Source: an uncultured Flavobacteriaceae bacterium
Lineage (GTDB): Bacteria; Pseudomonadota; Alphaproteobacteria; Micropepsales; Micropepsaceae
Direction of reading: 5' to 3'
DNA length: 64,000 bases
Assembly: GCA_964638635.1 (NCBI GenBank)
Contig: CAZXAQ010000003.1
Span: forward strand, 32,133-96,132
The notes under the pieces are model-generated. The model did no database searches. It was not told the origin of the DNA and worked only from the letters and a program-made list of their open reading frames with translations. The position numbers and the translations under genes were made by a program. Shown in pieces: positions 1,547 to 39,037 of this stretch (the first letter of the stretch is position 1; each line of letters begins with the position of its first letter).

Positions 1547-1671
1547 CAAATCGAACCATTGTCGAACACATGGGGGACCGTACGGCGCCCCACCGAACCC
1601 GGCAAGGCATGGGGCGGGCCAGCGAATTCGCGCTGGATTACCGGCCACCCGCAGGCCTAAACTCGCGGCCC

Positions 1672-3200: not shown

Positions 3201-3205
3201 GAGAG

Positions 3206-3952: not shown

Positions 3953-3978
3953 CGATCTTCTCCCAAGTGACGTCGGCC

Positions 3979-4416: not shown

Positions 4417-4483
4417 GGCGCTCACCTTCGATTGATTGTTTGCAAAGAAGGCGGGAGCTTTCGCCCCCGCCGCCAGGCTTTGG

Positions 4484-6354: not shown

Positions 6355-6777
6355 CGGATCCACCCCAGTTCGCGCATCGGAGGAATCCATCACCTCGCTG
6401 CGCTGCTCGGGCGGGAAATTACTTGCAGTTCATCCATCTCTGCACTGGAGACAAAGGCTGAGACTTCCGCGTCATCCGAATTACCCCGCTGGCGCGCACT
6501 CCTGTCGAAACACGCAGTCAGTCAAAATCATCCCCATCGGGCGTACCCCCAATGCCGCGCCGCGATGCGTCGCTCACCGACCGTCTGGACGCGGCGAGTC
6601 TCGATCGCACGTGACAAGTGCAGCCATCGCGGCGCTTTTCCGATCCCATCTCACTTGAGAGCACGACCGCCTACTTAAGTGGTATACGCCAATGCTCGCT
6701 TCACGTGCCGCACTTCATTTGTCATGCTCACAAGGCGAGTCGCGACCACGCGGCCCTCTAAGCGTTTCGAGGACACA

Positions 6778-7338
6778 ATGAAAGCAGCACGCATCTTTGC
6801 GACGGCCGTCACAACGGCGACGCTCACGATCGCCACGGCAAGCATCGCCGCAGCCGGCGAGCAGTATGCTTTTCCAAGCACGAACGGTGTGCAGGTGTCG
6901 GCGGTCTCCGCGCCAACCTTTGTCCGCCTGCCGAACGTCGCTCCGGCCGGGGGCATGTTTGTCTATGGCCAATCTGGCTTCGGCAGGCACGAAGCGCCAC
7001 CGCTGCCGGCGTTCGCCTATGCTCCGCCGCAAGCCGCGCCCTACGCCGGACGTTTAATGAGCCATGCGCTGATGGTAGCGCCGTATGCAAATTACGCGGC
7101 CGATTACGCCCGTCTCTTCGCGCCAAACTACGCTGTGAACGCCTGGACGGATCGCGTATTCGGCATCATCGACGGTGGCTACGGGGCGGTCGACGGCTGG
7201 ACGGCCGCAGCCTACGGCCTGCCTAAACTGCGTGGGCCCCGGCGCCGCGGCGAAAGCACGCCGGATCTGTCAACCATGCCGACGCTCCGCACGCACCCGG
7301 AACTCGCCAGCCCGACGTTCAGAAGCCAGGGAAACTAA
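6778..7338 (+). CDS. Hypothetical secreted Ala/Tyr/Pro-rich protein
   Basis: ATG at 6778. Signal-like MKAARIFATAVTTATLTIATASIAAAG. No recognisable domain. Confidence 0.5.
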   Translation: MKAARIFATAVTTATLTIATASIAAAGEQYAFPSTNGVQVSAVSAPTFVRLPNVAPAGGMFVYGQSGFGRHEAPPLPAFAYAPPQAAPYAGRLMSHALMVAPYANYAADYARLFAPNYAVNAWTDRVFGIIDGGYGAVDGWTAAAYGLPKLRGPRRRGESTPDLSTMPTLRTHPELASPTFRSQGN

Positions 7339-7344
7339 ACGCGG

Positions 7345-8040
7345 CTAGGCCGGTTTCGCGCGACCGTTGCGCGCGCCATTGGAGAGGTTGGCAAGGCCGT
7401 GCTGCACCGCCCAAATCGCCACCTGCGTGCGGTTCGTCGCGCCGAGCTTGCGCAACACCGTCTTCAAGTGAACCTTCACAGTCGCTTCCGTGATCGCCAG
7501 TTCCTTCGCGATCGCCTTGTTCGAGTCGCCGTCCGCCAGTTGGCGGATGATGTCGAGTTCGCGCTGCGACAACGCCACATCGCCAACGCGCAAGCGTTCG
7601 TTCGTGCCGGCATGGTTTGTCCGCATGGCGCCAAGAAAGTCCGTCAGCATGCTGGGAAACACCTTTTCCCCGAGCGCAACCAAGCGCAGCGACTCGATCA
7701 GCGCGCTTGGCGTAATGCTCTTCAGCAAATAACCATCGGCACCGGCGCTGAACATGTCAGCCAGATGCGCAAGCTCCGCGGACTCGGCGAACACGACGGT
7801 GCGTGCCTGAGGTTGCGAGACTTTCAGCGCCGATACAGCTGCCGGCCCCTGCGTGAAATCGAGAATGATGATGTTCGGCGAGGGCCCGTGAGATCCGTTG
7901 CCGTTGATCTCTTCAACCGTTGCGGCCTCGGCGGCGACCTCGAAACCTTTGCCGTCCAATTGCGATCGCAAACCTGAGCGAAGCAACGGATGCGCATCGA
8001 TCAGCCAAATGACCGTATTTTCCACCAGTGCCCCCTGCAT
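7345..8040 (-). CDS. Response regulator, receiver + LuxR/FixJ-type HTH (NarL/CsgD class)
   Basis: Receiver domain with IIILDF and GYLLKS. C-terminal LSQRELDIIRQLADGDSNKAIAKELAITEATVKVHLKTVLRKLGATNRTQ is a LuxR HTH. Confidence 0.9.
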   Translation of the reverse strand: MQGALVENTVIWLIDAHPLLRSGLRSQLDGKGFEVAAEAATVEEINGNGSHGPSPNIIILDFTQGPAAVSALKVSQPQARTVVFAESAELAHLADMFSAGADGYLLKSITPSALIESLRLVALGEKVFPSMLTDFLGAMRTNHAGTNERLRVGDVALSQRELDIIRQLADGDSNKAIAKELAITEATVKVHLKTVLRKLGATNRTQVAIWAVQHGLANLSNGARNGRAKPA

Positions 8041-8241
8041 CGCGCATTCCTCTACGGCTACAAAGCCGCTGGAAAGTTCTCTGCTTCCGAATATGTTTCG
8101 GAGTACCCCCTAAATAGGGCCCAATTACTTTAGTTGTAAATCGCTCGTCAGTGTACGTCCGCGTGACGAGTGCAACACTTGGAATGAATTCCTGTGAGAT
8201 TAACCATGAAGCATATAATCCTGCGCGTCGGCAACCATCTT

Positions 8242-9099
8242 TCACACGTCTGTGACGAATTCACGGACCGCAAGCAGAACTGACTCAGGATCGTCACGAA
8301 ACGCCCCGTGTCCACAGTTTTCGAATACCCTGAGCGACGCGAAGCCCGCCTTGATGCAAGTCAATAACTCCGTCGCCAAATGCGGCGGCGTGATCGGATC
8401 TTCGGCGCCCGCCAGGACGAGCGTCGGGCATAGGATTTTGTTCAGGGCGGTTCGAAAATCCATCTTGTGGATTTCACGGCCGGGCAAAGAGAAATGCCGG
8501 TAGACCTCACGGCGCATGATGGCGCGAGCGCGGGCATCCTCGCCGTCGGCTCGGACCGTTGTGTTGTACAGCGGCATGCAAACGCGCATGTAAGTCTCGA
8601 ATTCCGCGTCGCTGCCCGACTCCCACATCCGCTTGGCCGACTCCAGAGCCGACGCACCGCCCTTGGCCTCGAAAATCTTCATACTGGCGGGAAAGTCCAT
8701 GCGCGCCGCCGTACTCGACAGAATAAGCGCGCGCGGATGGTCGGGATGCCGCGTCGCATAGGCTTGCGCGACCATGCCCCCGAACGACTGGCCCAGCACA
8801 ATCGGCTTCACGATCCCAAGCGCGTCGCAGAAGGCGCGCACGTCGTCGCCCCACTGCGCAAGCGTCCAGGTCGCCGGATCGCTCGGCACGCTGCGTCCGT
8901 TGCCGCGGTGGTCGATGTAGATCACCTGCGCGATGTCGGCGAGCCCATCGAAGTCGCCGCGCAATCCCGAGTGATCGAACCCCGGCCCGCCGTGCATCAC
9001 GATCAGCGTCAGCTTCTCGCGCATCCGCGGGCCGTCGGGTGCAAGCTTCGATCCTGCTACATCGAAGAAAATGCGTTGCCCGCCGACATCGACAAACAT
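8242..9099 (-). CDS. Alpha/beta hydrolase (proline iminopeptidase-like)
   Basis: HGGPG oxyanion motif and GQSFGG nucleophile elbow. Confidence 0.85.
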   Translation of the reverse strand: MFVDVGGQRIFFDVAGSKLAPDGPRMREKLTLIVMHGGPGFDHSGLRGDFDGLADIAQVIYIDHRGNGRSVPSDPATWTLAQWGDDVRAFCDALGIVKPIVLGQSFGGMVAQAYATRHPDHPRALILSSTAARMDFPASMKIFEAKGGASALESAKRMWESGSDAEFETYMRVCMPLYNTTVRADGEDARARAIMRREVYRHFSLPGREIHKMDFRTALNKILCPTLVLAGAEDPITPPHLATELLTCIKAGFASLRVFENCGHGAFRDDPESVLLAVREFVTDV

Positions 9100-9153
9100 G
9101 ATCCACCGCCCGCGAAATCCGGCGCTGCGTTTAGCGCACGGGACCTGAGCCGC

Positions 9154-10530
9154 CTAGCGGAACGTCAGTTGAACGGTGAAAACATCCACGTGTGAATCGG
9201 TCACACCGATCAAATTGCCCCGCGCCAAATTCTCCGGCGCGGCTGCCGTCAGTGCGATGGGCTCTTCGGGAATGAACAAGTGCCCGTAGCCCGCCTCAAA
9301 GCTCGTTCCGCCCTCGAAATCGTAGCGCGTGCTGACGGCAAGCCACGTGCGGTCCGCATCGGGAATGCGCGGATCGCGCGTCGCATCGCGCGTCGGACTT
9401 TGGTCGTACGCGACACCCATGCGCAGCGTCCAGTTATCGGCAAGGCGCCCCTTCACGCCCGCAGACGCAAACCATGTGTTCTTCCAGTCGTAGGTCTGAA
9501 ACACGTCGGCCTGCAGCGGATTGACGAATTTGATCCGCAGCTCTTCGAACGCGTTCCACCACGTGTAGCCGGCCTCGGCGAGCAGCGTGACCGCGGGCGT
9601 CACCGCGACGGAGAAACCCGCCGACGCGACCGCGGGCGTGGTCAACTTCGTCGACGCCGCCGAGTCCGCGAAGCTCCCGGTCGCCAGTGAGATCGCAGTG
9701 CCAACCCCCGCCGTGTCCAGCGTGAAATCGACATCGCCTTCAAGCGTGTGCCGGATTTCGGACCGGTACGACGCGCCGACGCTTACCTCCTGCGACGGCC
9801 GCCACAACGCGCCGAGCACGAAGCCGAAACCCCAATCTTCGACATTGAACTCCGCTTTGCCGTCTTGCAGCGTGGGGAGAGAACCCGGCACGGCGAACAG
9901 GGCCCCGATCGTGCCGAAGTCGACCGCGTTCGACAGCGTTCCCTTCGCGTACTGAATCTGCGCGCCCGCCGAAACGACAAACTCCGGCGCAATCTCGTAC
10001 GCCAGCGACGGAACCGCGTTGACGGTGATGAGCTTCGATTCAAGCGCGTAATAGCGCCCGACCCAACCGTCGTTGTAACGCGTGCTCAAGCCCCACGGTG
10101 CCGAAACCGACAACCCCGCCGTGAGGCCCTGCGCCAAGCGGTAACGCAGCTGCAGTCCGGGTTCGTACGCATCCTTGATGAATCCGTCGGGAGCGGCATT
10201 CCCGCCCGTCGGTGTGCCGAGCGCGTTGGTCGCAAGGCCGAACGCCGCCTCCGACGTCGGATAGATACCGTTGACGGTAAAGCTTGCGTCCCAATCCGAA
10301 ACACCCGCGCTCGTCGCCGGATTGTAGGTCAGGAAGCCGGGTTCGTCGGCCTGCGCGCTCGTACCGGCAAAGGCTGCACCCATGCCCGAGAGGCTGTACT
10401 CTTTGAGCGCATAACCGGCCGCGACCGCCGAAGACGGTAAAAGAATGCTTGCGACGAGCGCTGCCCCAACACCCCGGACAAACACAAAAGCCCCCAACGC
10501 ACCCGAAACTAAGATCACACTTGGCGCCAA
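9154..10530 (-). CDS. FadL/TodX-family outer-membrane hydrophobic-compound transporter
   Basis: Signal peptide, then AGYALKEYSLSGMGAAFAGTSAQADEPGFLTYNPA (FadL N-terminal hatch motif). Beta-strand-rich throughout. Confidence 0.85.
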   Translation of the reverse strand: MAPSVILVSGALGAFVFVRGVGAALVASILLPSSAVAAGYALKEYSLSGMGAAFAGTSAQADEPGFLTYNPATSAGVSDWDASFTVNGIYPTSEAAFGLATNALGTPTGGNAAPDGFIKDAYEPGLQLRYRLAQGLTAGLSVSAPWGLSTRYNDGWVGRYYALESKLITVNAVPSLAYEIAPEFVVSAGAQIQYAKGTLSNAVDFGTIGALFAVPGSLPTLQDGKAEFNVEDWGFGFVLGALWRPSQEVSVGASYRSEIRHTLEGDVDFTLDTAGVGTAISLATGSFADSAASTKLTTPAVASAGFSVAVTPAVTLLAEAGYTWWNAFEELRIKFVNPLQADVFQTYDWKNTWFASAGVKGRLADNWTLRMGVAYDQSPTRDATRDPRIPDADRTWLAVSTRYDFEGGTSFEAGYGHLFIPEEPIALTAAAPENLARGNLIGVTDSHVDVFTVQLTFR

Positions 10531-12819: not shown

Positions 12820-13296
12820 TCAGGGCGCGGCGAATTCGCCGCTCAACGTGTCGAGCGCTGCGCAGAACGCCCCAAGGTCCTTGGAGGTCTCGAACGCGGT
12901 TGCGGCCGCGTTCACCTTCTTCACGCGAGAGGCAAGCACCTCAATGGTGATCTTGCCCGCGGCCGCATCGGCTTGCATGGCGGAGGTCAACTCGGCAACG
13001 CGCGCCTCCACATCCGCGCGCTCGCCGCACGAGCGGCCGCCGGTGAAAGCGGCGAAGCCAAGCGCAAGCACAAGAACGCCCGCGCCGCCGAGCGCGAGCG
13101 CCCGCGTGCGCCCCGACGCAGCCGCCCACGCCGCCGCCGCGCGCGCGTAGGTCTGGCGCGCTATGGTAATGATCCGGTTCAGTTCTGGATCTCGCAAGTG
13201 ACCGTCGAGCCGATGGTAGCCGTCGCGGTCCCGCCCAGACCGTCGGAGATCGTGTAGGTGACGGAACCGACCTGCGTCTGCACCGCCGTTAGGCAC
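12820..13296 (-). CDS. Hypothetical membrane-anchored protein (start uncertain)
   Basis: One TM segment (ALALGGAGVLVLALGFAAF). The only upstream start (GTG at 13296) overlaps the 3' end of the cadherin-like gene by ~118 nt. No ATG/GTG/TTG lies between 13179 and the TM segment. Confidence 0.3.
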   Translation of the reverse strand: MPNGGADAGRFRHLHDLRRSGRDRDGYHRLDGHLRDPELNRIITIARQTYARAAAAWAAASGRTRALALGGAGVLVLALGFAAFTGGRSCGERADVEARVAELTSAMQADAAAGKITIEVLASRVKKVNAAATAFETSKDLGAFCAALDTLSGEFAAP

Positions 13297-14612
13297 ACAT
13301 TGTTGTGCGTGATCGTCACCGAGGTTCCGTTCGTGCTTGCTGAGCCGTTCGTGGGTTGGGTAACGTTGGTAATCGTAAGCGCATTGTTGTCCGGATCGTT
13401 GTCATTGACACGCGGGTCGAAGGTCGCGGTCGGCTGCGTACCGTTCACGCCGCCCGCCTCATAGGTTCCCACCAAATCCACGGTGTCGTTCACCGCCACG
13501 GGCGGCGAGTTCGCATTCTGAATAGTCACGTTGACGGTCGCGGTTGCCGTCATGCCATCCAGATCGGTAATCGTGTAGGTGAAGCTGTCCGCGCCCGTCT
13601 GGCCGGTGTTCGGCGTGTAGGTGACGGACGTGCCGCCGTTGATCACGACCGTACCCTTGGTTCCGTTCGTCTTGGCCGTGATCGTGATCGTGCCGCTATC
13701 GTCGCTGTCATTCGTGCGCGGATCCGTCGTGAAAGCGGTGTTGGTCAGGGTGGTCCTGCTGTCGTTGACGGCGACCGGCGGCAGAGTGCCGTGCGTCACG
13801 GTGACGTTGACGGTGGCCGTCGCTGTACCGCCGTCCACGTCGGTGACCGTATAGGTGAAGCTGTCGGGGCCGGTGTAGTTTGCCGTCGGCGTATAGGCCA
13901 GCAAAGTGCCACCGTTTACGATCGTCAGCACACCATGCGAGGGCGTCGACTTCGAGGTGATCGTAAAAGCATCGCCGCCGGGGTCGCTGTCGTTTACGCG
14001 CGGGTCGAACGAGAAAACGAAGGTGTTCTTCGCCGTTGAAGCCACATCGTTCACCGCGACCGGGTCCAGATTCGCCAGCGTGACCGTAACTTCGCCGGAG
14101 GCATCCATGCCCTGCCCGTCCGTAATCGTATAGACGACCTTGTCCGTCGCGTTGCGCTTGTATGTACTTGAGTACGTAACGGTCGTGTTGCCGCCGGAGA
14201 GGGCCGCCGTTCCATAAACACCGTTGCCGACACTGAACAACGTAAGCGGATTCCCATCGGGATCGCTGTCGTTCGTGCGCGGATTCAGCGTCAGCGAATT
14301 CTGATCCTCGGTCAGCGTCACCGCATCGCCGGCCGTGACCGGCTTCCGGTTTACCGTGGTCGCCGAAACGATGTGCTGCGTTCGGTTTCCGGCAGCATCA
14401 TATTTGTAGACGATCTGCTTTCCATCGTCGTAGCGCACCGAAATGATGCGCCCGAGCGAGTCATAAGAATATGTGGCACCCGCCAACGCCGACCCGGCGA
14501 GCACGCACGCCGCGCCCGCAAGCAACGCCGATCGTCGCACGGCAGGAAAACGCAAAACCGAGGAACGCAACGCCGGTACTGGAGGCTGTGCGAAACGCAT
14601 GCTGCTCTCCAT
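13179..14612 (-). CDS. Secreted protein: two N-terminal YD repeats + four ~95-aa cadherin-like (tandem-95 type) repeats
   Basis: Start at MESSMRF (14612; alternative 14600). ATYSYDSLGRIISVRYDDGKQIVYKYDAAGNR is a YD-repeat signature. Then 4x PVAVND...DPR.NDSDPDG..LTI...G...Y.P....G.DSFTYT..D..G..ATATVNVTV. Confidence 0.8.
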   Translation of the reverse strand: MESSMRFAQPPVPALRSSVLRFPAVRRSALLAGAACVLAGSALAGATYSYDSLGRIISVRYDDGKQIVYKYDAAGNRTQHIVSATTVNRKPVTAGDAVTLTEDQNSLTLNPRTNDSDPDGNPLTLFSVGNGVYGTAALSGGNTTVTYSSTYKRNATDKVVYTITDGQGMDASGEVTVTLANLDPVAVNDVASTAKNTFVFSFDPRVNDSDPGGDAFTITSKSTPSHGVLTIVNGGTLLAYTPTANYTGPDSFTYTVTDVDGGTATATVNVTVTHGTLPPVAVNDSRTTLTNTAFTTDPRTNDSDDSGTITITAKTNGTKGTVVINGGTSVTYTPNTGQTGADSFTYTITDLDGMTATATVNVTIQNANSPPVAVNDTVDLVGTYEAGGVNGTQPTATFDPRVNDNDPDNNALTITNVTQPTNGSASTNGTSVTITHNNVCLTAVQTQVGSVTYTISDGLGGTATATIGSTVTCEIQN

Positions 14613-15062
14613 GACGGATGCTGATCGATGATCGCGCACACTGTACGCGCGCAATTGCGAACTGTGAAGACGTCGCGCACACGACGTTGAAGATTTTCTT
14701 GCCGATGAAGTTGCGTTCGCAGTTGCTCGCTTATCGCTGCGCGCAATCAAACTTGTCGCGCGCAAAACACAATTGACATTGCGAAGAGTTGGCGCACACT
14801 CCGCCAATCGTACGCACGCATGCCGATGGCGTACGCTTCGCCTTCGTTCAGTTGCGTTTCAGTGTGTTTCCTTCGTTCTTTAAAGAGGTTCACGCATGAC
14901 GCCGGCACACGCTCACGGACATATCGCGACTTTCGTGCGGAAAAACACGTTCTCAAGTCCGCCATAGCCGCCTCTTTTCAAACGACCGGAACCAACAAGC
15001 GAGCGCGCACGACTGCGCCTCGCAACGAGCACCTTTGCGCATCAGCAACACAGAGCCGAACA

Positions 15063-18000
15063 ATGCCAACGCTCACATTCTCAAGGTTTTTCGCGATTTC
15101 CGCGCTCGTTCTCGCAGCCGCGAGTCCTGCGCACGCACTGCCGGAGATGAGCGTCGGCACAGGCTTCGCGGTCACCCCCGCGCAGGCGCTGACTTACTAT
15201 ACGAACCAAGGTCTTACGAGCCCCGCGTGGACGGAAGATCCGGAGCTCGACAGGCTGGCGACCGCGCTGGGCAACGATCCCGACAAGATTTACGAGTACG
15301 TCAGAAACGAAATCGACGTCGTTCCGCTCTTCGGCGTGCAAGCGGGCGCGCGCGGCTGCTACATCGACAAGGCTTGCACGCCGTTCGATCAAGCACAATT
15401 CATGGTCGAGCTGCTGCGCTCCGCCGGCGTGACCGCGAGCTATCAACTCGGCACCATCACGCTAACCGGCACACAGTTCGACCAGTGGTTCGGTCTCACG
15501 AACCCAACCGCCGCGCGCAAGTTGCTGGCCGACGGCGGCACGCCTTACACGATGACGGACAACGGCACGTCCGTGACGTCCGTCACAATGATGCATGTCT
15601 GGGTACGCGCGACGATCGGCGGCACGACCTACTCGTTCGACCCAGGGTTCAAGCCGCACACGGTGACGACCGGCATCAACCTTGACACCGCGATGGGCTT
15701 CAACAGCGCGACGTTCTGGTCGAACGCGATCAGCGGCGCCTCGACCTCGACCACCAATAACACACCACGCGTGAGCAACCTGCACCGCACGAACGTGCGG
15801 AACAACTTAGGCACCTACGCCACGAACCTGCTCAATTACATCACGGCCAACCTCCCCAACGGCTCGATGGACAACGTGATCGGCGGCCGGACGCTAACGC
15901 CGTACGCCGGCCCCGCGCTTCGCCAGACCACGCTGCCCTACCAAGCAAGCACAACGCAGCTGTTTACGGGCGACTTGCCCCTGGTGCTGCGCAAACGCGT
16001 GACGATCGTCGGCAGTTCGACGACGTACAACGCCCCGCTCGACGAGTTTTTTGGCAAGCAGATAACGTTCGAACTGAACAGGGAAAACCCACCCCCGGGT
16101 GGCTTCACACAATACCGATTCCTCATCGGCGAACAGGTCGTCACCAATTGGACGAACGGCACCGTTGGTGGTGCGGTCATTACCATCAACAACCCATACG
16201 CCGCCGGAAACAGCGCCGGTGTCTTCGATGGCGCCTACATGGATCGCGCCGTGCCGCTGACCGGCTCGAATACGACCGGCGTGCAACTCTTCGTCGCCGC
16301 CGGACGCGTGTCCGGAGACTATGGCGCCTATCAGGAGCGCGTCCACAGCGGACGCAGCGGTATCGTGATCTACCAGAAGGCCTGCTGTCACGAAGAGGGA
16401 CAGGGCCAGTGGGTTGAGCCGCAGCAGATCGCCCTGCGCCGGCGCATGGGCGCAACATTCATGTCGCAGTTCTGGGACATGACTCAACTCGTTGGCGGCG
16501 TCGGGAGTTCCATCGTTTTGGTGCACGATGTCGTGGGTATTGCCACGACCGCACGCGCTGAAGCCGGCGACTCGGAATCGCCTGTCGCCTCGTCGTTCAT
16601 GTTCAGCATGGAACCGGCAATCTCGGCACTCTCGAGAACCGGGATTACGACGCAGCCGCCGATCGTCGCTCGCACGGTCGCGATGATGCTATCCGCGCTT
16701 GAGGGTAGCGTGGCGCAGCAGGCTGGCGACTCGGTCTTTCCGGTGTCGGCTGTCGTCCAGCTCGATTGGGCCCACGCCGGACCGGCAGCCGCCGACCGTT
16801 GGTACTACTATGCCACCTCGGCAAACTGGAACTCGTTCGCCAGATCGCAGATTCTGCTCGATTACGACCCGAACCCAGGCCCCGGCACATCACCGATCCG
16901 CAATATCGCAGACGGTTACATCGCCGCGGGTTGGACGGTCATGATCCCGCGCTCCTCTTTCTTGGGCCCGGGCCTTGCGGAGCAGCAGTACTGTGTCCCC
17001 TACGAGGTGCAAGGACAGATGATGTCATGCAAGATCGCCGGACCGGATCGCGCCGGCGCTCTGATCGCCATAAACCCGACGACCGGTGCGGTCGCGCACA
17101 TCTCGGCACGCAACTATCTGTACGGCAAAGGCGGCGGCGGATCGACGGACGCCGAGACCAATCCGGCGCGCATTTTCACAATCGCCGAGGGCTTCCTCGA
17201 CAAGCAATTCTCCTCGCGCGCCGAAGCGCATAACGTCGACTTGAAGTCCGGCATGATGACCTATACCCCGCCGCCGGATATCACGGTCGGCAACGGCGGC
17301 TACCCTTACAGCCTGTCGTTTCAGAGGTCCTATCGCTATCAACACAACAGCGACGAGGACTACTGGGATGCTCAGAATCCAGCCAACCCAATGGAACCCC
17401 CAGATACGGTCGCTCGCGACGACATATTCACCACGACAGGGTGGACTTCAAACCTTCATCACTATGCGTCGATCACCTCAGACGGTGCGAAGGTATTCGG
17501 CCAAGACGACCCGCGCGTCGCCGTGCAAACGCTGGCGACGGCGAGGGTCTTGTTGTCGATCATGGGCAACGGCACGACCAATCTCGAAACCCTCCAGCGC
17601 CAGATCGTCGGCGCCTTTGCCGGCTTCTGGTGGACCGAGACGATTCTGATGAACACGGTCACGGTGAAGCAAGGTCATTCGAGCCGCAGCTTCACCAAAT
17701 TGCACGACGGCACGTTCACGGCCCGCGGGAGCGCGGAGACGGTGGAGGTTTTCGGCTCGCGCACGATTTATACTGGATTCACCGTGATGGGAGGCGGCGC
17801 ACCCAGGTGGGGGTACAATTTCTGCGTCCGCATAACGGGCGCCCAACGCGACGTCACGATCTACGGGAACTTCAACGGCACGAGCTGCAGCACGCCGCCC
17901 CCCAGCAACATCGTACCGAGCGGCGGCAATACCGGCGACATGATGTTCTCCACCCAGACGTTCCCCTACGGCATCACCGTTACGTACGACCGGTTTAACA

Positions 18001-21000
18001 AGAAGCTCTCGAACAATTTGGGCCGATGGATCAGTTTCTCGGGAGGACCCGCGACAGGTGGCGGCGCCATGGTCACGACGAGCGCCGGCGGTTTGGTGAC
18101 GTTTGCGGCGACCGAATCGGTGAACAACAGCGGCTATGTGCCATCGCTCACGGTCACCAATGGAGGCGTCTGGCAATACGTTGAAGACATGAACCGAACC
18201 TTCTTAGAGGTACGTCCGCCATCTACGCCGAATGCGCATTGGATGCGGTATGAGTATCAACCCGGCACGTTCGGCGTTGTCGAGAAAATCAAGGACGCGC
18301 TGAACCAGACGACGACGTACAATCTGGGCGGCGGCCGCGCCGCCTCGGTCGCCGACCCTCTCGGCAACACCACGAAGACGCTGCACGACAAGTTCGGCAA
18401 CGTCGTCCGGATTGAAGACCCGCTCGGGCGTGTCGCGAAGACGGAGTACGACAACTTCCGGCGCAAGGTGAAAGTCACGGCGCCCGAGGGGAACTACGCC
18501 ACGTACGCCTACGATGCGAAGTCGAACGTGCTGACAACGGCGGAGTTTGTGAAGCCTGGGTCGCCGACGCTGCCCTCATCGCGCACCGCAACGAAAACCT
18601 ATGACGCAGTGTGCAATGTCCCGCTGACGGAAACGGATTTCGGCGGCCGGACGACCACGATGGCGATCAATCAGACCACGTGCAAGGTCACGTCGGTGAC
18701 ACAGCCGCTCGTTGGCGGCGTGTCACCGGTTACGACCTACACCTACAACACGCTTGGTCAGGTGACCCAGAAGACGGACCCAACCGGCCTTGTCACGCAG
18801 ATGAACTACAACAGCCCACCGGGCTGCGGCACGTCGTGCACTTCGAACGGAAACTTGGAGAGTGTGATCGTGAACCCCGGCGCGGGCAATCTCGCGATCA
18901 CCACCCTGTTCGGCTACGACGCCTGGGGCAACATCACCACGGTCACCGATCCGCGCGGCTTCGTCCATACGGGCGAGTACGACGCGATGCGCCGTCTAAC
19001 GCAGTACACAGCCCCCACCGGCACGAACGCCGTCACGAAATGGACCTACGACGTCGACGGGCTCGTCTCGAAGATCGAGCGCGCGGCCAACGCCGCGAAC
19101 ACGGTCTGGGCGACGACGCAGTACAGCTACTACGCCACCGGCCGCGTCGCCTCGATGACCGACGCCGACGGGCGTGTCACGCGCTACACCTACGACGCGG
19201 CAAACCGGCTCGTCTTCACGATCGATCCAGAGGCGCGCCAGACGAAGAAAATCTACGACGCCGCAAGCCAAGTCATCGAAGAGCGCCGCGGCGTCGGCAC
19301 GCCGGACGAACAGGCCTATGCGACGTTCGCCTACACGCTGAACGGCAAGCAGTCCTGGATCAAGGACGCGAAGCTGAATCAGACGAGCTATACGTATGAC
19401 GGTTATGACCGGCTGACCCTCACCACGTTCCCCGACGCCACGCACGAAGACCTCGTTTACAACGTGACAGACAAGGTCACGTCAAAGCTCACGCGCGGCG
19501 GGCAACAGATCGTCAACACTTATGACGCGCTCGACCGGGAGGTGACGCATCTGGTGCCGCAACCGGGCGCGGCACCCGCAATCCTCACCACCACAACCTA
19601 CGACCTGGCCTCCCGCGTGACGAGCAAGAGCGACAACACCGGGCACAGCCTGACGTACGCCTTCGACACCGCGAAACGCCCGATCTCGGTGACGCAGGCC
19701 GCCCCCACGTTCGCCGGCACCCGCGTGGTCAGCTACCTGCTCGACCTCGCCGGCAACAAAACGCGCACAACCTGGGCCGACGGCTACTACGTGCAATACG
19801 CCTACGACGCCTTGAACCGGATGACGACGGCGACGGAGAACGGCACGTTCCTGCTCTCGACCTACATCTACGACACGCTGTCGCGGCGCACGAGCCTCAT
19901 CTATGGCAACGGCGCGAGCCAAGGGTACACTTACTCGACCCAGGGCGACCTGGTCACACTGGCAAGCACGCTGACCGGCGCAAGCAACACATACACCAAC
20001 ACCTTCTCGCTCGCGCATCAGTTGGCGAGCGAGGCGGCCAGTAACGCGGCCTGGCAATATGTCCCGGCAGCATTCCAAACGACCAACTACGCGGCCGCGA
20101 ACAACCTTAACCAGTACGTCAACATCACGGTGGGCCTGAACCCCACGGTCACGATGGCCTACGACGCGAACGGCAACTTGACCGGCGACGGCGTGTGGAC
20201 GTTCGCCTACGACGCGCAGAACATGCTACGCTCATCGACCAGTGCCGCGAGTACGAGCACCTATCAATACGACCCGCTCGGCCGGCGGCAGATGCTGACC
20301 GAGGGCGGCGTCACGACCACATTCCTGCACGACGGGGATGAGGAGATCGCGGACTACAGCGCTGCCGCCGCGGTGCTCAGGCGCTACGTGCCGGGGCCGG
20401 GCACGGACATGCCGATCGCGATGGTGACGCCGTCGGGCGGCAGCAACCTGCGAAAATACTTTCACACGAACCGCCAAGGCTCGACGATCGCGATGTCGGC
20501 CGACGACGGGACGATGGCCGAGGGGCCGTACACATACGACGCCTACGGCAATGGCGCACCGGCAACGGGCGTGCCGTTCAAGTACACGGGGCGCAGGTTG
20601 GATGCGGGGACGGGGTTGTACTATTACCGGGCGCGATATTACTCGGCGGCGCTTGGGCGGTTTCTGCAGGTTGATCCGGTGGGGTATGAGGATCAGATGA
20701 ATTTGTATGCCTACGTCGGGAATGACCCTCAGAACAAGAATGACCCCGATGGAGAGTTCGCCAACATATTGATTGGTGCGGCTGTTGGCGCAGCACTTGA
20801 GTATGGCAGCCAAGTTGTTGAGAATCTGGCGAAGGGTCAAAGCATCTCGGACGCGGCGCAGAATGTTGATTTGGCAAAGATCGGGATCTCGGCATTGTCT
20901 GGCGCAGTCGGCGCGGGGATAGCGAGCAAGGTAGAAAAACTAGGCAAAATGGCGCAGCTCGGCGCCGAGGCTCTCCAGAGTGCCGCAACAAAAGCCGCCA

Positions 21001-21305
21001 AGGGAGAGGAAATATCGATAGAAAGCGTTGGGGCTGACGTGTTGGGTGGCAAGGCACTAGCCCCTGTCGGCGCGAAGGTAGGGGCCAAACTGGCCGGGAA
21101 AAGTAACGTTGTCACCGATGAGGTGAAGAAGCGCGCGAAGTTTCCTGGCAGTGCCCGTGACAAAGCACGGCTAGAGGTCGGAGAAAAGATGGACGCCGAA
21201 AGAGCGGCTAAATATGGGGCGGGCGGCGGCGCTGTGGGATCAGGTATCGGATCGAGCGCGGCGGGCGTCAGTGTTAGCAGTGACAAAGAAAAACAAAACA
21301 AATGA
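15063..21305 (+). CDS. RHS/YD-repeat polymorphic-toxin-type protein with Sec signal peptide, N-terminal transglutaminase-like core and variable C-terminal domain
   Basis: ATG at 15063 ([25 protein letters not shown]). Transglutaminase-like Cys-His-Asp pattern: [21 protein letters not shown] ... MMHVWV ... YSFDP. Dense YD repeats from ~18.3 kb. RHS core end [47 protein letters not shown]. Confidence 0.95.
20760..21302 (+). other. RHS C-terminal variable (putative toxin) domain, 181 aa, glycine-zipper-like and Lys/Ala-rich
   Basis: Begins directly after DPDGEF: [16 protein letters not shown]...[16 protein letters not shown]...[24 protein letters not shown]...[21 protein letters not shown] here is visibly less GC-rich than the RHS core. 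Confidence 0.6.
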
Positions 21306-21321
21306 CAATCTTGGTGCGACG

Positions 21322-21663
21322 ATGCGGGATAATGTAATCGAGAAAGTCATACTCGCGATTCTATTTCTGGTGGTCGCATGGTCTATGGTTAGGCAGGGCG
21401 CCCCACAGGCGGTCGCTGTGTTCGCAGCCTTCCTTCTTCTGGCATACGGCACTGGAATGATAATTTGGTCACCGAAGCCTACGTCCGAGTGGCGCGGATG
21501 GTTGGCAATCGGAGGCGGCGCAACTATCGCACTGTATTTGCAGTCAACGACGGTTGCGCTCTATGCGGGACTGGCGCTGGTAGGGCAACTGGTTGCTCGA
21601 TTGTTAGGAATTTGGCTCTTTCCACGCGAAGCTAGAGATGACACCGACGAAGATAAAGAATAG
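21322..21663 (+). CDS. Small polytopic membrane protein, candidate cognate immunity protein
   Basis: ATG at 21322, 16 nt after the RHS stop. About 4 hydrophobic helices (VILAILFLVVAWSMV, AVAVFAAFLLLAYGTGMIIW, WLAIGGGATIALYL, ALYAGLALVGQLVARLLGIWLF). Same low-GC composition as the RHS C-terminal domain. Confidence 0.6.
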   Translation: MRDNVIEKVILAILFLVVAWSMVRQGAPQAVAVFAAFLLLAYGTGMIIWSPKPTSEWRGWLAIGGGATIALYLQSTTVALYAGLALVGQLVARLLGIWLFPREARDDTDEDKE

Positions 21664-21748
21664 AAGAAGCACGAATATGTTCTATCTTTGAGCGCGACCG
21701 CGCAAGAATTCCGAGGGACGCGACTGCTACGCGCCCCTCTGCACAGAG

Positions 21749-21878
21749 GCGGAGGAATCGGGGTCAGAGCGGAGGAATCGCGGGGTCAGAGCGGAGGAAT
21801 CGGGGTCAGAGTAGATTTTGCTCACTCAATACCGAGACAAAATGAACCCCCTACCCCTGGAAGGAATCGGGGTCAGAG
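21749..21878. repeat. Tandem direct repeats of GCGGAGGAATCG(CG)GGGTCAGA (3 adjacent copies) plus a 4th copy 50 nt downstream
   Basis: Copies at 21749-21768, 21769-21790 (2-nt insertion), 21791-21810 and 21859-21878 (GGAAGGAATCGGGGTCAGAG). An AT-rich imperfect hairpin ATTTTGCTC..GAGACAAAAT lies between copies 3 and 4. Confidence 0.8.
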
Positions 21879-21905
21879 TCGACTAGCTACGGATGCACCA
21901 GCCCC

Positions 21906-22409
21906 CTACCCCTGCTTCCGCACAAACAACAACCGCACGCGCCCCGTCGGGTCCGTTTCCGTCCACGCGTCGCCGCCGCGCATGCCTTCGGCCCAGCCCA
22001 GCATGTCCTTCTCCGTGCGGTAGAACAGGTGCCAGTCGCAGATGAACTCCATCGGCCACAGATTGCTGAGCTCGGTCTCGTTCATGTTGCCCACGATCAA
22101 GAGCCCGCCGGGCGCCAGCCGCTCGTAGAGCCGCGCCGACAGCGCGCGTGCGCGCCGGTCGATCAAATAGTCGATCAAGCTCACCGAATAGATCATGTCC
22201 TGCGGCCCCGCCTCGTCGAGCCATGACCCGCCGCGCAGCACGTCGCTGAACGACACGTTGATCGGCTTGACCTTCGCCCCGGGCTTGGCCTTCAGGGTCA
22301 GCGGATGCGCGTGATCGAACGCATAAGCCAGCGCCGCCTGCTCCTGGTCGATCAGCGTGAATTCCGCAGGCCCCGCTGGCGCCGCCGGATCCTTCGGCAA
22401 ACGCATCAC
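21906..22409 (-). pseudogene. Truncated paralogue (C-terminal ~165 aa only) of the PilZ-like/SAM-methyltransferase gene at 23783..25231
   Basis: FTLIDQEQAALAYAFDHAHPLTLK...GGLLIVGNMNETELSNLWPMEFICDWHLFYRTEKDMLGW...TETDPTGRVRLLFVRKQG aligns residue-for-residue with the C-terminus of the 544-aa ORF. It lacks the LGCGSA SAM motif and everything N-terminal to it. Confidence 0.7.
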
Positions 22410-22610
22410 ACACGGCCTGGTGGCGCCCTGGCGAACAGCAGAACGAGGGTTTTTGGCGGATTTCTCGGTCAGCCATTGTTGCGCGCGGGACGCAGGTGTC
22501 TGGAATCATGCACGTTAAAGTGGGTCTTGGGTCGGCATTTCTTGACAGTTTCGGTGCGGCGAGTGAACTAAAGGCGGATGCAGGGTGGGGGCCCTGCCGT
22601 AGGGGGAAAT

Positions 22611-23630
22611 ATGCGTAAGATTATGGCTTTGGCGGCGGCTGCCGCTTTCGTGGTGCCTACGGCAGCTCTTGCCGATGGGGAAGAGGCGGCAAGCGCCCGT
22701 CCGTACTTCGGCGGGTTCTATGTTGGACAAACCGCGATGGACATGCCGGTCCACGCGAACTCGGCGATGCAATTCGATTTCGGCGGCGGACTGACGTCGA
22801 CGGAACTTGCCGCCAACGTTGACGGTCTCACCTACGGCCTCGGGATCGGGAAAAATCTCGACAGCGGTTGGCGCGTGATCCTCACCGGCAGCTATTTCGA
22901 CGGCGAAGGCGATGCTCGAGACAGCTATACCATCGCGAATGCGACGCCCTTTAGGTATGGCCCGCTCACTGGCGGCACGCCGCCCGGTTTCGCGGACGTG
23001 TTCTTCGGTCCATATGGATGCCCCGGAACGCCGTGTAACGCGGTCGAAAACCTCACGACGGGTGTGCGTGAACTGACCGGTGCTTTGGCGGTTGGTCGCC
23101 AGTTGTTCGACATGGTGCACAGCGATATCGTGTTGACCTATACGTCGGGTGAGAGCGAGTACAATAATCTGCGGACGGTAACGGGCACGGGCTTCACGGA
23201 TACGCATTTGACGCAAACCGATTTCTCGGAAAGCCAAGTGGATCTTGCGCTACGCCTGTCGCTCGACTTCGGTCTGGCGGACAGCATTTCGGTCGGCGTC
23301 GGCGGTTCGGCCGGCTACGGCTACAGCCACGCTCACATGATTGCGAGACAGCGCAACACGTTCAGCATCGGTCCAAGCGTGTATAACGTCTCGTCGCTTG
23401 CCTTCGAAGACGGCGAGTACGGCTTCGTCGGCCGGGTGGATGCGAACATTGCCTGGGCGATCACCGACCGGATCAACCTTGCCGTCGTGGGTAACTACGA
23501 AAGCGACAGCATGGTTCCGGTCTACAGCGCTGCGGACGCGCCGGACCTGGTCGCTCACACGCGGGCCCAGTTCCACTTCGAAACGCAGTCGAACACAAGC
23601 TACGGCGTGCGCCTGGTCACGGCCTGGTAA
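22611..23630 (+). CDS. Outer-membrane beta-barrel protein (porin / OMP-barrel like)
   Basis: ATG at 22611 after AGGGGGAAAT. Signal peptide MRKIMALAAAAAFVVPTAALA. Alternating beta-strand pattern and C-terminal aromatic residue ...YGVRLVTAW. Confidence 0.7.
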   Translation: MRKIMALAAAAAFVVPTAALADGEEAASARPYFGGFYVGQTAMDMPVHANSAMQFDFGGGLTSTELAANVDGLTYGLGIGKNLDSGWRVILTGSYFDGEGDARDSYTIANATPFRYGPLTGGTPPGFADVFFGPYGCPGTPCNAVENLTTGVRELTGALAVGRQLFDMVHSDIVLTYTSGESEYNNLRTVTGTGFTDTHLTQTDFSESQVDLALRLSLDFGLADSISVGVGGSAGYGYSHAHMIARQRNTFSIGPSVYNVSSLAFEDGEYGFVGRVDANIAWAITDRINLAVVGNYESDSMVPVYSAADAPDLVAHTRAQFHFETQSNTSYGVRLVTAW

Positions 23631-23782: not shown

Positions 23783-25231
23783 CTACGCCGGCTTGCGCGC
23801 GAACAGCAACCGCACGCGGCCCGTCGGGTCCGTCTCCGTCCACGCATGCGCGCCCGGCATCCCCTCGACCCACCCCAGCATGTCCTTCTCGCTGCGGTAA
23901 TAGAGGTGCCAATCGCAGATGAACTCCATCGGCCACAGATTGCTGAGTTCGGTTTCGTTCATATTGCCGATGATGAGCAGTCCGCCCGGCGCAAGCCGCT
24001 CATAGAGCCGCTGCCCGAGCGTCCGTGCGCGCCGGTCGATCAAATAGTCGATGAGCCCGACGGAATAGATCATGTCCTGCGGCCCGGCGTCGTCGAGCCA
24101 CGCACCGCCGCGCAACACATCGGTGAACGACACGTTGATCGGCCGCACGCTTGCCTGCGGCTTCATTTTCAGCGTCAGCGGATGCGCGCGATCGAACGCG
24201 TAGGCTAGCGCCGCCTGCTCCTGATCGATCAGCGTGAAAGCGACCCGGCCTTGCGGCGCGTTCGGGTCCTTCAGATGCAGCTCCACCTCGCGCGCCGAAC
24301 CGCAGCCGAGGCTCATGATCCGCGCCGGCGTGCCGTTCGCGCGCGAACGCACCACGTCGTCGATCACCTTCTTCACCACATGCATGCGCGTGCCGATGCA
24401 CTCCGCCACGTCGAGCCCGACGCGGTGCATCAGCTGCGAATAGACGTCGCCGCCTTCGCGCTGCCAATCGTAGACATAGTTCATGATCTCGAAGTCGCCG
24501 GGATACCCCGCCGGCTTGAAATAGCTGCGCCACCACACGGGGCCGTGGTTCAACTCCGGTGTCAGGACGAGCTCGGTGTATTCCTTCACCGCTTCGAGCC
24601 GCTTCTTGTCTTCCATCACCGGCGCGACCAGCTGATTGCCCGCGCGCCACAGGCTGCGCCACTGCGGAATGATCCGCTCCGCGCACATCTCGTAGGCTTC
24701 GTCGACGCTCAGGCCCGTCGACTGATGCGGAAACGGTTTCACGCTGGTCTCGACCACCGACCGGTAGGCGCGCAGGAAGCGCAACACATCGGCGCAATGC
24801 GCCCGGTACTCTGCCGGCACCAGCCCGCTCACATGCGGATCAAGCGTCGCCAGCTGCTGCGAAATCCGCGCCTGCGCGTTGCGCCGCAAGAGGGAGTGAA
24901 AATCCACGACGTCGTCGATGAGATTGAGCGCGACTTTCGGCCCGAACACCGACCGCTCCGTGCGCACGACCTTGGCCTTGCCCTCAAGGATCGAAAGCCC
25001 CGCTTGCTTGACCGCGATCGGCACGATCTCGCCGGTTTCGACCGCCACATCGACAGTCTGATTGGCGTTGACGCAAATGCCGGTCAGGCTGATGTCGCCA
25101 AGCCGGAAGGCCGCCCCTTTGACGTAAACCTTCGGCGGCGTACCGGAAAACAGCTCAGCCGCGTCGTAGCGTTTCGGCCGGAAAAAGATCTGTCGGCCGC
25201 TTGCGCCCTTCAGCTCCTCATACGCCAGCAT
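23783..25231 (-). CDS. PilZ-like N-terminal domain fused to class I SAM-dependent methyltransferase
   Basis: N-terminus ...RQIFFRPKRYD...(24 aa)...RLGDISLTGI has DxSxxG present but an imperfect RxxxR half. C-terminal half has IMSLGCGSAREVE (motif I) and GGLLIIGNM. Start could be ATG 25231 or an upstream TTG/GTG. Confidence 0.75.
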   Translation of the reverse strand: MLAYEELKGASGRQIFFRPKRYDAAELFSGTPPKVYVKGAAFRLGDISLTGICVNANQTVDVAVETGEIVPIAVKQAGLSILEGKAKVVRTERSVFGPKVALNLIDDVVDFHSLLRRNAQARISQQLATLDPHVSGLVPAEYRAHCADVLRFLRAYRSVVETSVKPFPHQSTGLSVDEAYEMCAERIIPQWRSLWRAGNQLVAPVMEDKKRLEAVKEYTELVLTPELNHGPVWWRSYFKPAGYPGDFEIMNYVYDWQREGGDVYSQLMHRVGLDVAECIGTRMHVVKKVIDDVVRSRANGTPARIMSLGCGSAREVELHLKDPNAPQGRVAFTLIDQEQAALAYAFDRAHPLTLKMKPQASVRPINVSFTDVLRGGAWLDDAGPQDMIYSVGLIDYLIDRRARTLGQRLYERLAPGGLLIIGNMNETELSNLWPMEFICDWHLYYRSEKDMLGWVEGMPGAHAWTETDPTGRVRLLFARKPA

Positions 25232-25404
25232 ATTCCCCTCGCGCGCGAATTTCACTTGTTCGCTCAATGAAGTAGGCTCCTTCCTATAGCGATGATCCGT
25301 GTGCTGAGAAAGAGACGCGCGCGCATTTCGCAACCAATCGTAAACTGTGGTCTGCCACGGTAAACGCCGTCTTAACCTCGAACCTGCCGCTAGTGTCACG
25401 TTCC

Positions 25405-25815
25405 ATGAGCCAACCAAAGCTGACCGTCGATGCCGTCGTCTTCGACAGGACCGGTCGGTTGCTCCTCATCAAGCGCAAGTCGCCGCCGTTCAAAGGTTGC
25501 TACGCGCTGCCGGGAGGCTTCGTGGAGCACGGCGAAACCGTGGAAGAAGCCGCGCGCCGCGAACTGAAAGAGGAAACCGGCGTGACCGTAGAGTCACAGC
25601 GCTTGGTCGGTGTTTACTCTGACCCCGGTCGCGACCCGCGCGGCCAAGTCGTCTCGATCGCCTTCCTCATGAAAGCGCGCGCGGCCAGGCCCACCGCCGG
25701 CGACGATGCCGCGGCCGCCGAATTTGTGGCCGACTGGCGCTCGAAGCCGCTCGCGTTCGATCACGCCAAGATCGTCGCGGACGCGATCGCGCTTTTGCCA
25801 AAGAAGGCCCGATGA
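25405..25815 (+). CDS. NUDIX hydrolase
   Basis: Nudix box GGFVEHGETVEEAARRELKEETGV. Confidence 0.9.
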   Translation: MSQPKLTVDAVVFDRTGRLLLIKRKSPPFKGCYALPGGFVEHGETVEEAARRELKEETGVTVESQRLVGVYSDPGRDPRGQVVSIAFLMKARAARPTAGDDAAAAEFVADWRSKPLAFDHAKIVADAIALLPKKAR

Positions 25816-38934: not shown

Positions 38935-39037
38935 GCAAAACTCGAGCCCATCAGAGATGAGGTTTCGGCGCAAAACTGTCAATTCGCCAGGTGTTACAGC
39001 CCGTTAACAACCGCACGGATAACCGCCGAAAACGGCG

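Follow-up and report, generated by a model that had tools for sequence, protein, structure and literature searches.

A probable Sec-dependent Rhs toxin with a transglutaminase-like head, a recurrent mini-YD partner gene and a possible type II secretion route

Introduction

How would a Gram-negative cell deliver a giant Rhs protein that starts with a Sec signal peptide? Rhs effectors of Gram-negative bacteria are mostly cargo for type VI secretion (by the T6SS), and the locus described here raises the question of another route. It lies in a 64-kb stretch of DNA from contig CAZXAQ010000003.1 (the window, on which coordinates and strands are given unless a related locus is named), where the gene at 15063-21305 (+ strand) codes for an Rhs protein of 2080 amino acids (aa). 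The exit of Sec-exported toxins with Rhs/YD shells from diderm cells and their delivery to the target constitute an open question, and a 2025 preprint on bacterial teneurin-like proteins calls the mechanism of delivery unknown (bioRxiv 10.1101/2025.11.11.687626).

Our analysis indicates that the protein is very probably a Sec-dependent, T6SS-independent polymorphic Rhs toxin of a known class. The best explanation of the locus is a system of at least three parts: the toxin (15063-21305), an immunity candidate (21322-21663) and an exported partner (13179-14600) which bears a short double-YD module that we call mini-YD. The near-universal presence of this partner beside the Rhs gene and a recurrent linkage to genes for type II secretion (by the T2SS) appear to be new observations; these regularities of the family give a concrete two-component model, which is genetically testable because cultured carriers exist.

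Start and Signal Peptide of the Rhs Protein

The features at the beginning of the gene are the following:

15063..21305, + strand: gene of the probable Rhs polymorphic toxin, 2080 aa plus stop (open reading frame, gene call on a Logan contig, and RHS_repeat, YD_repeat_2x and Rhs_assc_core matches)
15063..15137, + strand: Sec/SPI-type signal peptide, residues 1-25, with predicted cleavage AHA|LP (read from the sequence and its conservation)

The open reading frame (ORF) runs from stop to stop over 14709-21305 and its longest ATG version begins at 14820. The ATG at 15063 is nevertheless the best-supported start, because the N-terminus that it opens is of the signal type, a gene called independently on a Logan metagenome contig has an identical start and an identical 2080-aa product, and 14 homologues align from residue 1 onward, each bringing a signal-like segment of its own and, after it, a conserved LPxxxxG motif. 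In addition, the 81 codons upstream (14820-15062), inspected by eye, hold no PAAR-like sequence; they fall inside the intergenic region common to the Rhs gene and the divergent partner gene.

The signal peptide, as read by eye, presents one basic residue, a hydrophobic core and the residues AHA at positions -3/-1, and the mature protein would start with LPEMSVG. Neither a lipobox nor a twin-arginine motif was seen in the inspected N-terminus, and an equivalent hydrophobic N-terminus exists in all full-length homologues. The sequence-only reading from which this work started had claimed that the protein opens with a Sec-type signal peptide rather than with a PAAR or VgrG adaptor, and inspection of the sequence, the Logan gene call and the alignment of homologues all agree with it.

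Domain Anatomy

The Rhs protein was searched with Pfam and NCBIfam and modelled by AlphaFold2, and the models were compared with the PDB by Foldseek. From the mature N-terminus onward, it is built of the following parts:

15234..15662, + strand: transglutaminase-like (papain-fold) domain, residues ~58-200, with C105, H178 and D193 (Pfam matches in relatives, Foldseek)
15663..17222, + strand: conserved alpha/beta region without assigned fold, residues ~201-720 (family conservation)
17223..20534, + strand: Rhs/YD shell, residues ~721-1824 (Foldseek, RHS_core/YD matches, DUF6531-like motif at its start)
20535..20753, + strand: Rhs-associated core (autoproteolysis module), residues 1825-1897 (TIGR03696, E 3.3e-21)
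20754..21302, + strand: C-terminal tail, the putative toxin, 183 aa, following the core cleavage motif

The presence of a YD-repeat shell, also claimed beforehand, was confirmed by Pfam RHS_repeat (PF05593, E 1.5e-46 over 8 stretches), by NCBIfam TIGR01643 (YD_repeat_2x, 5.2e-27) and by the fold itself. RHS_core and YD repeats span residues 1178-1496 and beyond, and the model of residues 1-1100, calculated from 15 aligned sequences, matched the Rhs shells Tse5 8cp6, 7pq5 and 8qjc at Foldseek probabilities of 0.95-0.97. This model has a predicted local distance difference test score (pLDDT) of 71.7, rising to ~90 over residues 30-340, and a predicted template modelling score of 0.75; its Foldseek E-values are all weak (best 3.5e-3), which we attribute partly to the long multidomain query. 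Multiple YD/RHS repeats and an Rhs-associated core, two of the marks by which an Rhs polymorphic toxin is recognized, are both present. At the end of the core, a cleavage motif of the PxxxxDPxG type precedes the tail, as it does in 24 full-length relatives, and cleavage at this motif is predicted. Among the Pfam and NCBIfam matches of the Rhs residues checked, there was no PAAR, prePAAR, DUF4150 or VgrG-binding domain, in agreement with the earlier claim that a T6SS adaptor is lacking. Pfam gave no NHL or TTR match in the protein either, and the teneurin matches of Foldseek concerned the shell only and were weak (E 0.05-0.09).

The start of the shell near residue 720 was set by eye from a DUF6531-like motif beginning with VDLKSG (Pfam matches DUF6531 in 3 of 15 relatives); a segment that is helical and plug-like (residues ~808-861) also belongs to this first part of the shell. 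The sequence-only reading had placed about 870 aa of unassigned sequence between head and shell. Such a stretch does exist, but since the shell already begins near residue 720 its length is ~520 aa (residues ~200-720) and not 870. It presents motifs kept across the family (NHPYAA...GxYMD, LEGS and KGGGG) and has no Pfam match. A separate model of residues 195-730 gave a best Foldseek match in the PDB of E 0.29 and probability 0.03, at a pLDDT of 64.9 with which a known fold could be missed, and PDB sequence searches with residues 1-1100 and 26-246 returned nothing meaningful.

The Transglutaminase-Like Head and Its Missing Cysteine

The sequence-only reading had described the head as protease/transglutaminase-like on the basis of a Cys-His-Asp pattern, and the three residues do stand where it placed them (C105, with its TGC codon at 15375-15377, H178 and D193). 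Transglut_core (PF01841) stays below threshold in the Rhs protein itself (residues 73-188, E 0.0067, with 17.1 bits where 23 are required) and is matched by 11 of 15 relatives, with a best E of 2.8e-7. Foldseek of the 1-1100 model returned the transglutaminase-like cysteine protease 3isr at a probability of 1.00; further matches of the head were TglA 9crn, 3kd4, 7pjo and 4fgp, the range, 3isr included, being 0.44-1.00, and CPR-C4, PeiP and LapG are among the proteases of this group. In the model, whose pLDDT is ~90 over the head, C105 comes just before a helix (107-120), H178 is on a strand (171-185) and D193 follows another one (188-192), which may be read as the papain-fold arrangement. We consider the assignment of a transglutaminase-like fold to be sound.

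A catalytic head is, on the other hand, not a trait of the family. In a first alignment, the position of C105 was occupied by Cys in 4 sequences and by Gly in the rest, including the closest homologue (70% identical). For the count, we rely on a set of 158 cluster representatives retrieved by protein homology, in which Gly occupies the nucleophile position 148 times, Cys 7 times and Ala 3 times, whereas H178 is kept in 153, D193 in 157, D109 in 157 and Q110 in 154. Among 66 related loci, 57 have Gly and 9 have Cys, a ratio biased by the DNA pattern used to fetch them, which admitted only G or C there. The window protein belongs to the minority keeping the full triad. Because the shape of the cleft is conserved while the thiol is lost, these data point to a conserved binding module in most members rather than to a family-wide enzyme.

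The Variable Tail and the Immunity Candidate

Downstream of the core, the 183-aa tail contains 44% Gly/Ala/Ser, is amphipathic and presents GxxxG motifs; from this composition and its hydropathy, it is predicted to be membrane-active. It has no Pfam match and no homologue at E<=1e-3 among 5.8 billion proteins. The tails of 24 full-length relatives measure 154-226 aa and are essentially unrelated to each other, a pattern which, at the level of sequence, is the signature of polymorphic toxins. The gene that follows is:

21322..21663, + strand: candidate immunity gene, 113 aa, three to four transmembrane (TM) helices (ORF, hydropathy and position)

It begins 16 nucleotides past the Rhs stop codon, and it is this position that suggests an immunity role for its product; a longer ORF covering it (21214-21663) has no Pfam match. 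The two may reasonably be read as a toxin acting on membranes and its immunity protein of the membrane. Between 20000 and 22000, the GC content goes down to ~0.595-0.60 and the GC skew is positive over the tail, the immunity candidate and the next ~600 bp; the dip fits a recombined toxin/immunity cassette. Convergent to the immunity candidate is an ORF of 167 aa (21906-22409, - strand; GC content at third codon positions 0.85) which has no Pfam match and is not conserved in related loci.

Absence of a T6SS Context

About 60 ORFs, covering the likely genes of the 64 kb, were scanned with Pfam, and no family of VgrG, Hcp, PAAR, Tss, TpsB/POTRA, TcA/SpvB or the T2SS was found among them. Using 13 T6SS proteins of E. 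coli Sakai (L069) as tblastn queries against the window and 66 related loci, we obtained zero matches in the window and saw no T6SS core protein encoded closer than 10 kb to the gene, whichever of the 66 loci was considered; the N-terminus of E. coli RhsC, used in the same way, gave nothing. One match to ClpV, in L022, was taken for a general Clp/Hsp100 ATPase, no other T6SS query having matched there. Four contexts of homologues annotated with Pfam contain no T6SS gene.

The Pfam scans and the tblastn searches bear out the claim that no vgrG, hcp, PAAR, tcA-like or two-partner-secretion gene occurs in the 64 kb; neither two-partner-secretion nor Tc genes were seen in the 66 related loci. A T6SS effector is recognized by an N-terminus with a PAAR, prePAAR or VgrG-interaction region and without Sec signal, and by linkage to vgrG, hcp, Eag or tss genes; neither mark was seen in the 64 kb and the 66 loci. 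The delivery outside the T6SS that had been proposed for the Rhs protein is thus supported by its Sec signal, by the lack of a PAAR/VgrG adaptor and by the lack of T6SS genes in the window and the 66 loci. The Tc-toxin-like mechanism suggested as one form of it is not supported: Pfam detects no TcA, SpvB or beta-propeller component in the Rhs protein or in the window.

The Mini-YD Partner

The partner was first seen as RHS_repeat matches in small upstream ORFs on unrelated contigs. In the window, the features of this side of the locus are:

13179..14600, - strand: partner gene, divergent from the Rhs gene, 473 aa, with a signal peptide, one double-YD module and four Big_9/cadherin-like domains
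14376..14477, - strand: mini-YD module ATYSYDSLGRIISVRYDDGKQIVYKYDAAGNRTQ, starting where the mature partner is predicted to begin, 65.9 bits with a hidden Markov model (HMM) made from the modules
14601..15062, no strand: divergent intergenic region between partner and Rhs genes, 462 bp
12820..13197, - strand: possible third component, with one TM helix, a conserved Cys and a predicted ~70-aa helical periplasmic part; a TTG start is assumed

The 473-aa gene call is found on the Logan contig too, and the Pfam matches of its product are Big_9 (1.5e-63), Cadherin_4, Cadherin_5 and a single RHS_repeat. Searching first by regular expression and then by HMM, we found a partner adjoining the Rhs gene in 60 of the 62 loci with upstream DNA; in most cases it is divergent, at times co-directional. 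The consensus of the module is TYxYDxLGRLxxVxYDxGxxIxYTYDAAGNRTQ, and the HMM scores the partners at 41-72 bits, whereas other YD repeats of the same loci stay at 14-28 bits. In nearly all of the 61 partners, the module begins 0-3 residues past the predicted AxA cleavage site. As the mature protein is barely more than the module in 13 of the 61 (0-35 residues after it), it is the module which carries the conserved function. Other partners add 69-806 residues after it: among the 46 with more than 150 such residues, 33 present Big_9/cadherin-like domains, and the rest fn3, Calx-beta, PKD or Gly-rich segments.

Two observations on single loci can be added. In L030 (1-7369, - strand, and 7915-9906, + strand), there are two mini-YD partner genes, both fn3-containing and coding for 607 and 610 aa when counted from the module, and, on the opposite strand, another large RHS-like ORF; the system may thus be duplicated there, with a single T2SS operon in common. 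The partner of L044 matches GspH (E 6.5e-7); as no single stretch passes and the match overlaps Big_9, it was rejected as a likely cross-match between Ig folds and not taken as a link to pseudopilins. A scan for promoters and terminators over 13000-22600 gave counts at background level only.

Directly downstream of the partner comes the small gene at ~12820-13197, in which the partner's stop codon is contained by overlap. Its homologues occur directly 3' of the partner in L007 (7431-7637), L008 (7577-7765), L009 (2248-2442), L012 (7640-7828) and L016 (7449-7646), and in two copies in L017 (7402-7602 and 7900-8097). It has no Pfam match and is seen next to the partner only in the clade of the window.

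Size of the Family and Linkage to T2SS Genes

A word-indexed search found 18 relatives of the Rhs protein, whereas phmmer, run exhaustively with residues 26-720 as query, returned 3174 cluster-50 representatives at E<=1e-3, of which 551 at E<=1e-30. The family is therefore large, with at least 551 clusters at 50% identity, and its members typically measure 1900-2450 aa. A scan of the GTDB species representatives returned 63 loci. The loci belong mostly to Caulobacterales, Micropepsales (Rhizomicrobium), Hyphomonadaceae, Steroidobacteraceae and Hydrocarboniphaga, and the carriers in culture include Caulobacter vibrioides T5M6 (L047) and Phenylobacterium sp. LjRoot97 (L041).

In 8 of the 66 loci, from both alpha- and gammaproteobacteria, T2SS genes (gspD/E/F/G/J/M, PilN-like) are located within 10 kb of the pair formed by the Rhs and partner genes:

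L030, 17005-22875, same strand: Rhs gene, then gspE-F-G-J
L037, 4838-6931, and L050, 4528-6543, same strand: partner, then gspE and gspG
L004, 1-7114, L023, ~1580-8283, and L068, 45-5885, opposite strand: gspE 0.2-1.5 kb upstream of the partner
L017, 4055-6512, and L054, 12-2303: weaker T2SS matches

We estimate the chance that a cluster of ~12 kb falls in a stretch of 20 kb taken at random from a 4-5-Mb genome to be below 1%, an estimate to be read with the fact that the loci are not phylogenetically independent. The linkage recurs, and because of this non-independence we grade it as suggestive.

In L002, tyrosine integrases and a protein with a Toprim domain stand on the two sides of the pair (7053-8402 and 18241-21911); the pair is therefore sometimes carried by an integrative element. 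In two metagenome contigs, the Rhs gene was called as two overlapping ORFs, of 1514 and 607 aa in L004 (10001-16343) and of 1551 and 614 aa in L002 (10001-16448), which may reflect a shift of frame, faulty assembly or a gene that is really split.

Proposed Mechanism

We propose that the locus codes for a two-component Rhs toxin exported by Sec and the T2SS, to which the partner is docked through its mini-YD tag; taken as a whole, this is the model towards which we lean, with caution. The Rhs protein and the partner would both cross the inner membrane via Sec and lose their signal peptides. The double-YD hairpin at the mature N-terminus of the partner would then dock on the Rhs protein, either in the transglutaminase-like, mostly Cys-less cleft or by addition of beta-strands to the YD shell. 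Docking by strand addition would have a precedent, since the beta-sheets of TcB and TcC run into each other in Tc toxins; docking in the cleft would fit the peptide binding proposed earlier for inactive transglutaminase domains (Zhang et al. 2012). Once docked, the partner would supply a cadherin/Ig-like stalk or adhesin whose array mediates attachment, and the toxin-partner complex would exit through the T2SS. The aspartyl-protease core of the Rhs protein would cleave off the encapsulated 183-aa tail, predicted to harm the membrane of the target, and the downstream protein with its 3-4 TM helices would shield the producer. Taken singly, the docking and the T2SS steps are tentative, the use of a T2SS by the organism of the window included, and the same caution, if not a little more, is due to the specific proposal that mini-YD is a tag plugging into the Cys-less cleft or the edge of the shell of a T2SS-exported two-component toxin with interchangeable partner.

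If true, such a mechanism would represent a novel means by which diderms mount and deliver Rhs toxins, unlike T6SS spikes, Tc translocators or the wall anchoring of Gram-positives, and the type of partner (cadherin, fn3 or Calx-beta arrays, or a bare peptide) would set the attachment to the surface or the recognition of the target.

Several points weigh against the docked, T2SS-exported toxin. The window protein retains Cys105, the 64-kb window contains no T2SS gene, and L026 and L032 have upstream DNA but no partner. The mini-YD HMM lacks full specificity, since repeats inside some Rhs proteins reach 30-44 bits, and in none of 162 representatives did we find mini-YD fused to the N-terminus of an Rhs protein. 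The adjacency of the partner and Rhs genes could come from shared regulation rather than from binding. The passage of a folded Rhs shell of ~200 kDa plus its partner through a secretin is not established for the Rhs family. Finally, the tail is without any homologue and its toxicity is only predicted.

Alternative Explanations

The alternative which survives best, although we judge it rather unlikely, is a surface display resembling that of WapA: the Rhs protein would stay on the envelope of the producer, its Cys-less head binding an envelope peptide, the partner would be a separate adhesin or stalk, and killing would require contact. A peptide-anchoring hypothesis of this kind has been published (PMC3482391), the partner bears adhesin-type Big_9/cadherin domains, and the small membrane-anchored protein conserved beside it in the clade of the window could be the anchor; the window without T2SS gene also speaks for it. 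A diderm would still require a translocation step across the outer membrane, however, for which no gene lies close by: outer-membrane proteins in the vicinity are limited to FadL (9154-10530) and a weak ORF resembling an outer-membrane protein (22578-23630), neither of which is conserved in related loci. The Rhs protein and the partner are moreover devoid of lipobox, beta-barrel and sorting signal, T2SS clusters are tightly linked to the pair in eight relatives, and the activity of the RHS-family bacteriocin Bcn-A was found in the supernatant (PMC7259588).

An active head is improbable. According to this explanation, the head would function, within the clade of the window, as a cysteine protease or transglutaminase which processes or cross-links the partner's mini-YD (through its conserved Lys/Gln) or a component of the envelope. 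The sequence of the window protein does allow activity there, since C105, H178 and D193 are all present and, in the model, appear to adopt the papain-fold arrangement; the Foldseek matches include the active enzymes LapG, PeiP and CPR-C4, and the Cys is retained in 9 of 66 loci and 7 of 158 representatives. Yet Gly replaces it in ~94% of the family, down to the 70%-identical homologue, and the members bearing Gly keep the same architecture and the same partner, so that the conserved function cannot need the thiol. In addition, the Pfam score is under the threshold, and the partner modules look alike, by eye, in loci with Cys and in loci with Gly.

It is very improbable that the protein is not primarily a toxin but a periplasmic YD protein which, with its small partner, regulates a pilus or a T2SS-like machine. 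This has been proposed for Bd0109, an RHS-repeat protein exported by Sec, which has the small exported Bd0108 as its binding partner and is encoded beside pilus genes (PMC3818213), and our family is likewise paired with a small exported protein and at times found near T2SS genes. The canonical core-end cleavage motif with hypervariable tails across 24 relatives, the small membrane ORF directly downstream of the Rhs gene and the location of some copies in integrase-flanked islands (L002) disfavour it, because they are hallmarks of polymorphic toxin/immunity systems.

The last explanation, an orphan cargo loaded on a T6SS spike (VgrG/PAAR) or a TcA-like translocator encoded elsewhere in the genome, finds some ground in the usual attachment of Gram-negative Rhs effectors to the T6SS and in a view of the genome confined to 64 kb, but we regard it as highly improbable in view of a cleavable Sec signal that puts the Rhs protein in the periplasm, at odds with the cytoplasmic loading of the T6SS spike, of the lack of any PAAR, prePAAR, VgrG-binding, SpvB or beta-propeller domain in the protein, and of the lack of T6SS core genes within 10 kb in the 66 relatives and in the four Pfam-annotated contexts.

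Comparison with Known Systems

The class to which the Rhs protein belongs was catalogued by Zhang, de Souza, Anantharaman, Iyer and Aravind (2012, Biol Direct 7:18, PMC3482391). In their article, inactive transglutaminase domains combined with RHS define a class exported by Sec/T2SS; the domains always come right after a signal peptide or TM helix, the RHS repeats are next, the residues of the triad are lost, bacterial Ig domains are at times adjacent, and peptide binding was proposed to anchor the toxin. The Rhs protein of the window is an ordinary member of that architecture, with its signal peptide (1-25), transglutaminase-like domain (~58-200), shell (from ~720) and variable tail, and there was little new in the sequence-only reading as written. 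The loss of the catalytic residue in most members of the family and the association with Ig-type domains are further resemblances. There are two differences: the window protein keeps C105, H178 and D193, and the Ig/cadherin domains are here on a separate polypeptide. The ~520-aa region, the mini-YD partner gene and a physical linkage to T2SS genes are not mentioned in the part of the article available. Its examples are from Firmicutes, Bacteroidetes and beta-proteobacteria and our family is alpha- and gammaproteobacterial, the two being likened by architecture. The active proteases LapG/BTLCP, CPR-C4 and PeiP share the fold of the head but differ in that their catalytic Cys is not conserved in the Rhs family.

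Bcn-A of Xanthomonas perforans (PMC7259588) is an RHS-family bacteriocin of 1398 aa whose activity, present in the supernatant, is abolished in a mutant of the T2SS gene xpsD; it requires accessory ORFs, lying downstream, and has a downstream immunity gene. Compared by description, it resembles our putative toxin as an RHS-family antibacterial protein of a Gram-negative with an immunity gene downstream, a place taken here by a candidate, and differs from it in that no mini-YD is described in the accessory ORFs and no transglutaminase-like head is reported.

With the Rhs effectors of the T6SS (Tse5 8cp6, Photorhabdus 7pq5, Salmonella bongori 8qjc and P. protegens RhsA), the window protein has in common the fold of the shell, the core-end motif and an encapsulated polymorphic toxin, which in Tse5 is a pore-forming tail with a glycine zipper (PMC10684867). 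These effectors differ by their PAAR, prePAAR or VgrG-binding N-termini, by the absence of a signal peptide and by a location beside vgrG and chaperone genes. Tc toxins, in which TcB-TcC sits on TcA, likewise form an RHS cocoon from more than one polypeptide; their TcA, SpvB and beta-propeller are not found here, the partner gives a single double-YD hairpin, and the route of export is another one. WapA of Bacillus and Streptococcus suis and the teneurin-like proteins are Sec-exported polymorphic toxins with YD shells and N-terminal adhesion or anchoring (PMC12704120; bioRxiv 10.1101/2025.11.11.687626). They differ from our protein by cell-wall-binding domains, S-layer domains or lipoprotein anchors and, for the teneurin-like ones, by TTR, FN-plug and NHL propeller domains, none of which was detected in the window Rhs protein. 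A looser parallel, again by description, is the pair Bd0108/Bd0109 of Bdellovibrio bacteriovorus (PMC3818213), with an exported RHS-repeat protein, a small exported partner and adjacent pilus-type genes; Bd0109 differs by its length of 550 aa, the absence of a toxin cassette and a regulatory role.

Other Genes of the Window

The surroundings of the locus are ordinary chromosomal genes, coding for ParC, RecO, Era, RNase III, two LepB, PdxJ, SpoT, RpoZ and FolK, and further for SmpB, DapA, FadL, a histidine kinase and SCO1, among others. This gene content resembles that of an alphaproteobacterial chromosome; the Rhs protein and PdxJ were met only on short metagenome contigs of Logan (SRR8797211/14/15/19), and ParC had no record there. 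The genes of FadL, of SCO1, of the outer-membrane protein-like product (22578-23630), of a 544-aa protein (23783-25417) and of major facilitator superfamily transporters were considered as parts of the system and rejected, as they are not conserved beside the pair elsewhere. A cluster on the - strand (2553-6393) contains a CsgG-like lipoprotein (5503-6393), a 340-aa protein without Pfam match (4484-5506) and two TPR proteins (2553-3200 and 3206-4216), and is apparently a separate envelope system. Finally, two signal peptidase I genes (LepB, Peptidase_S26) stand in tandem beside rnc and era, at 37374-38141 and 38167-38982, both on the - strand.

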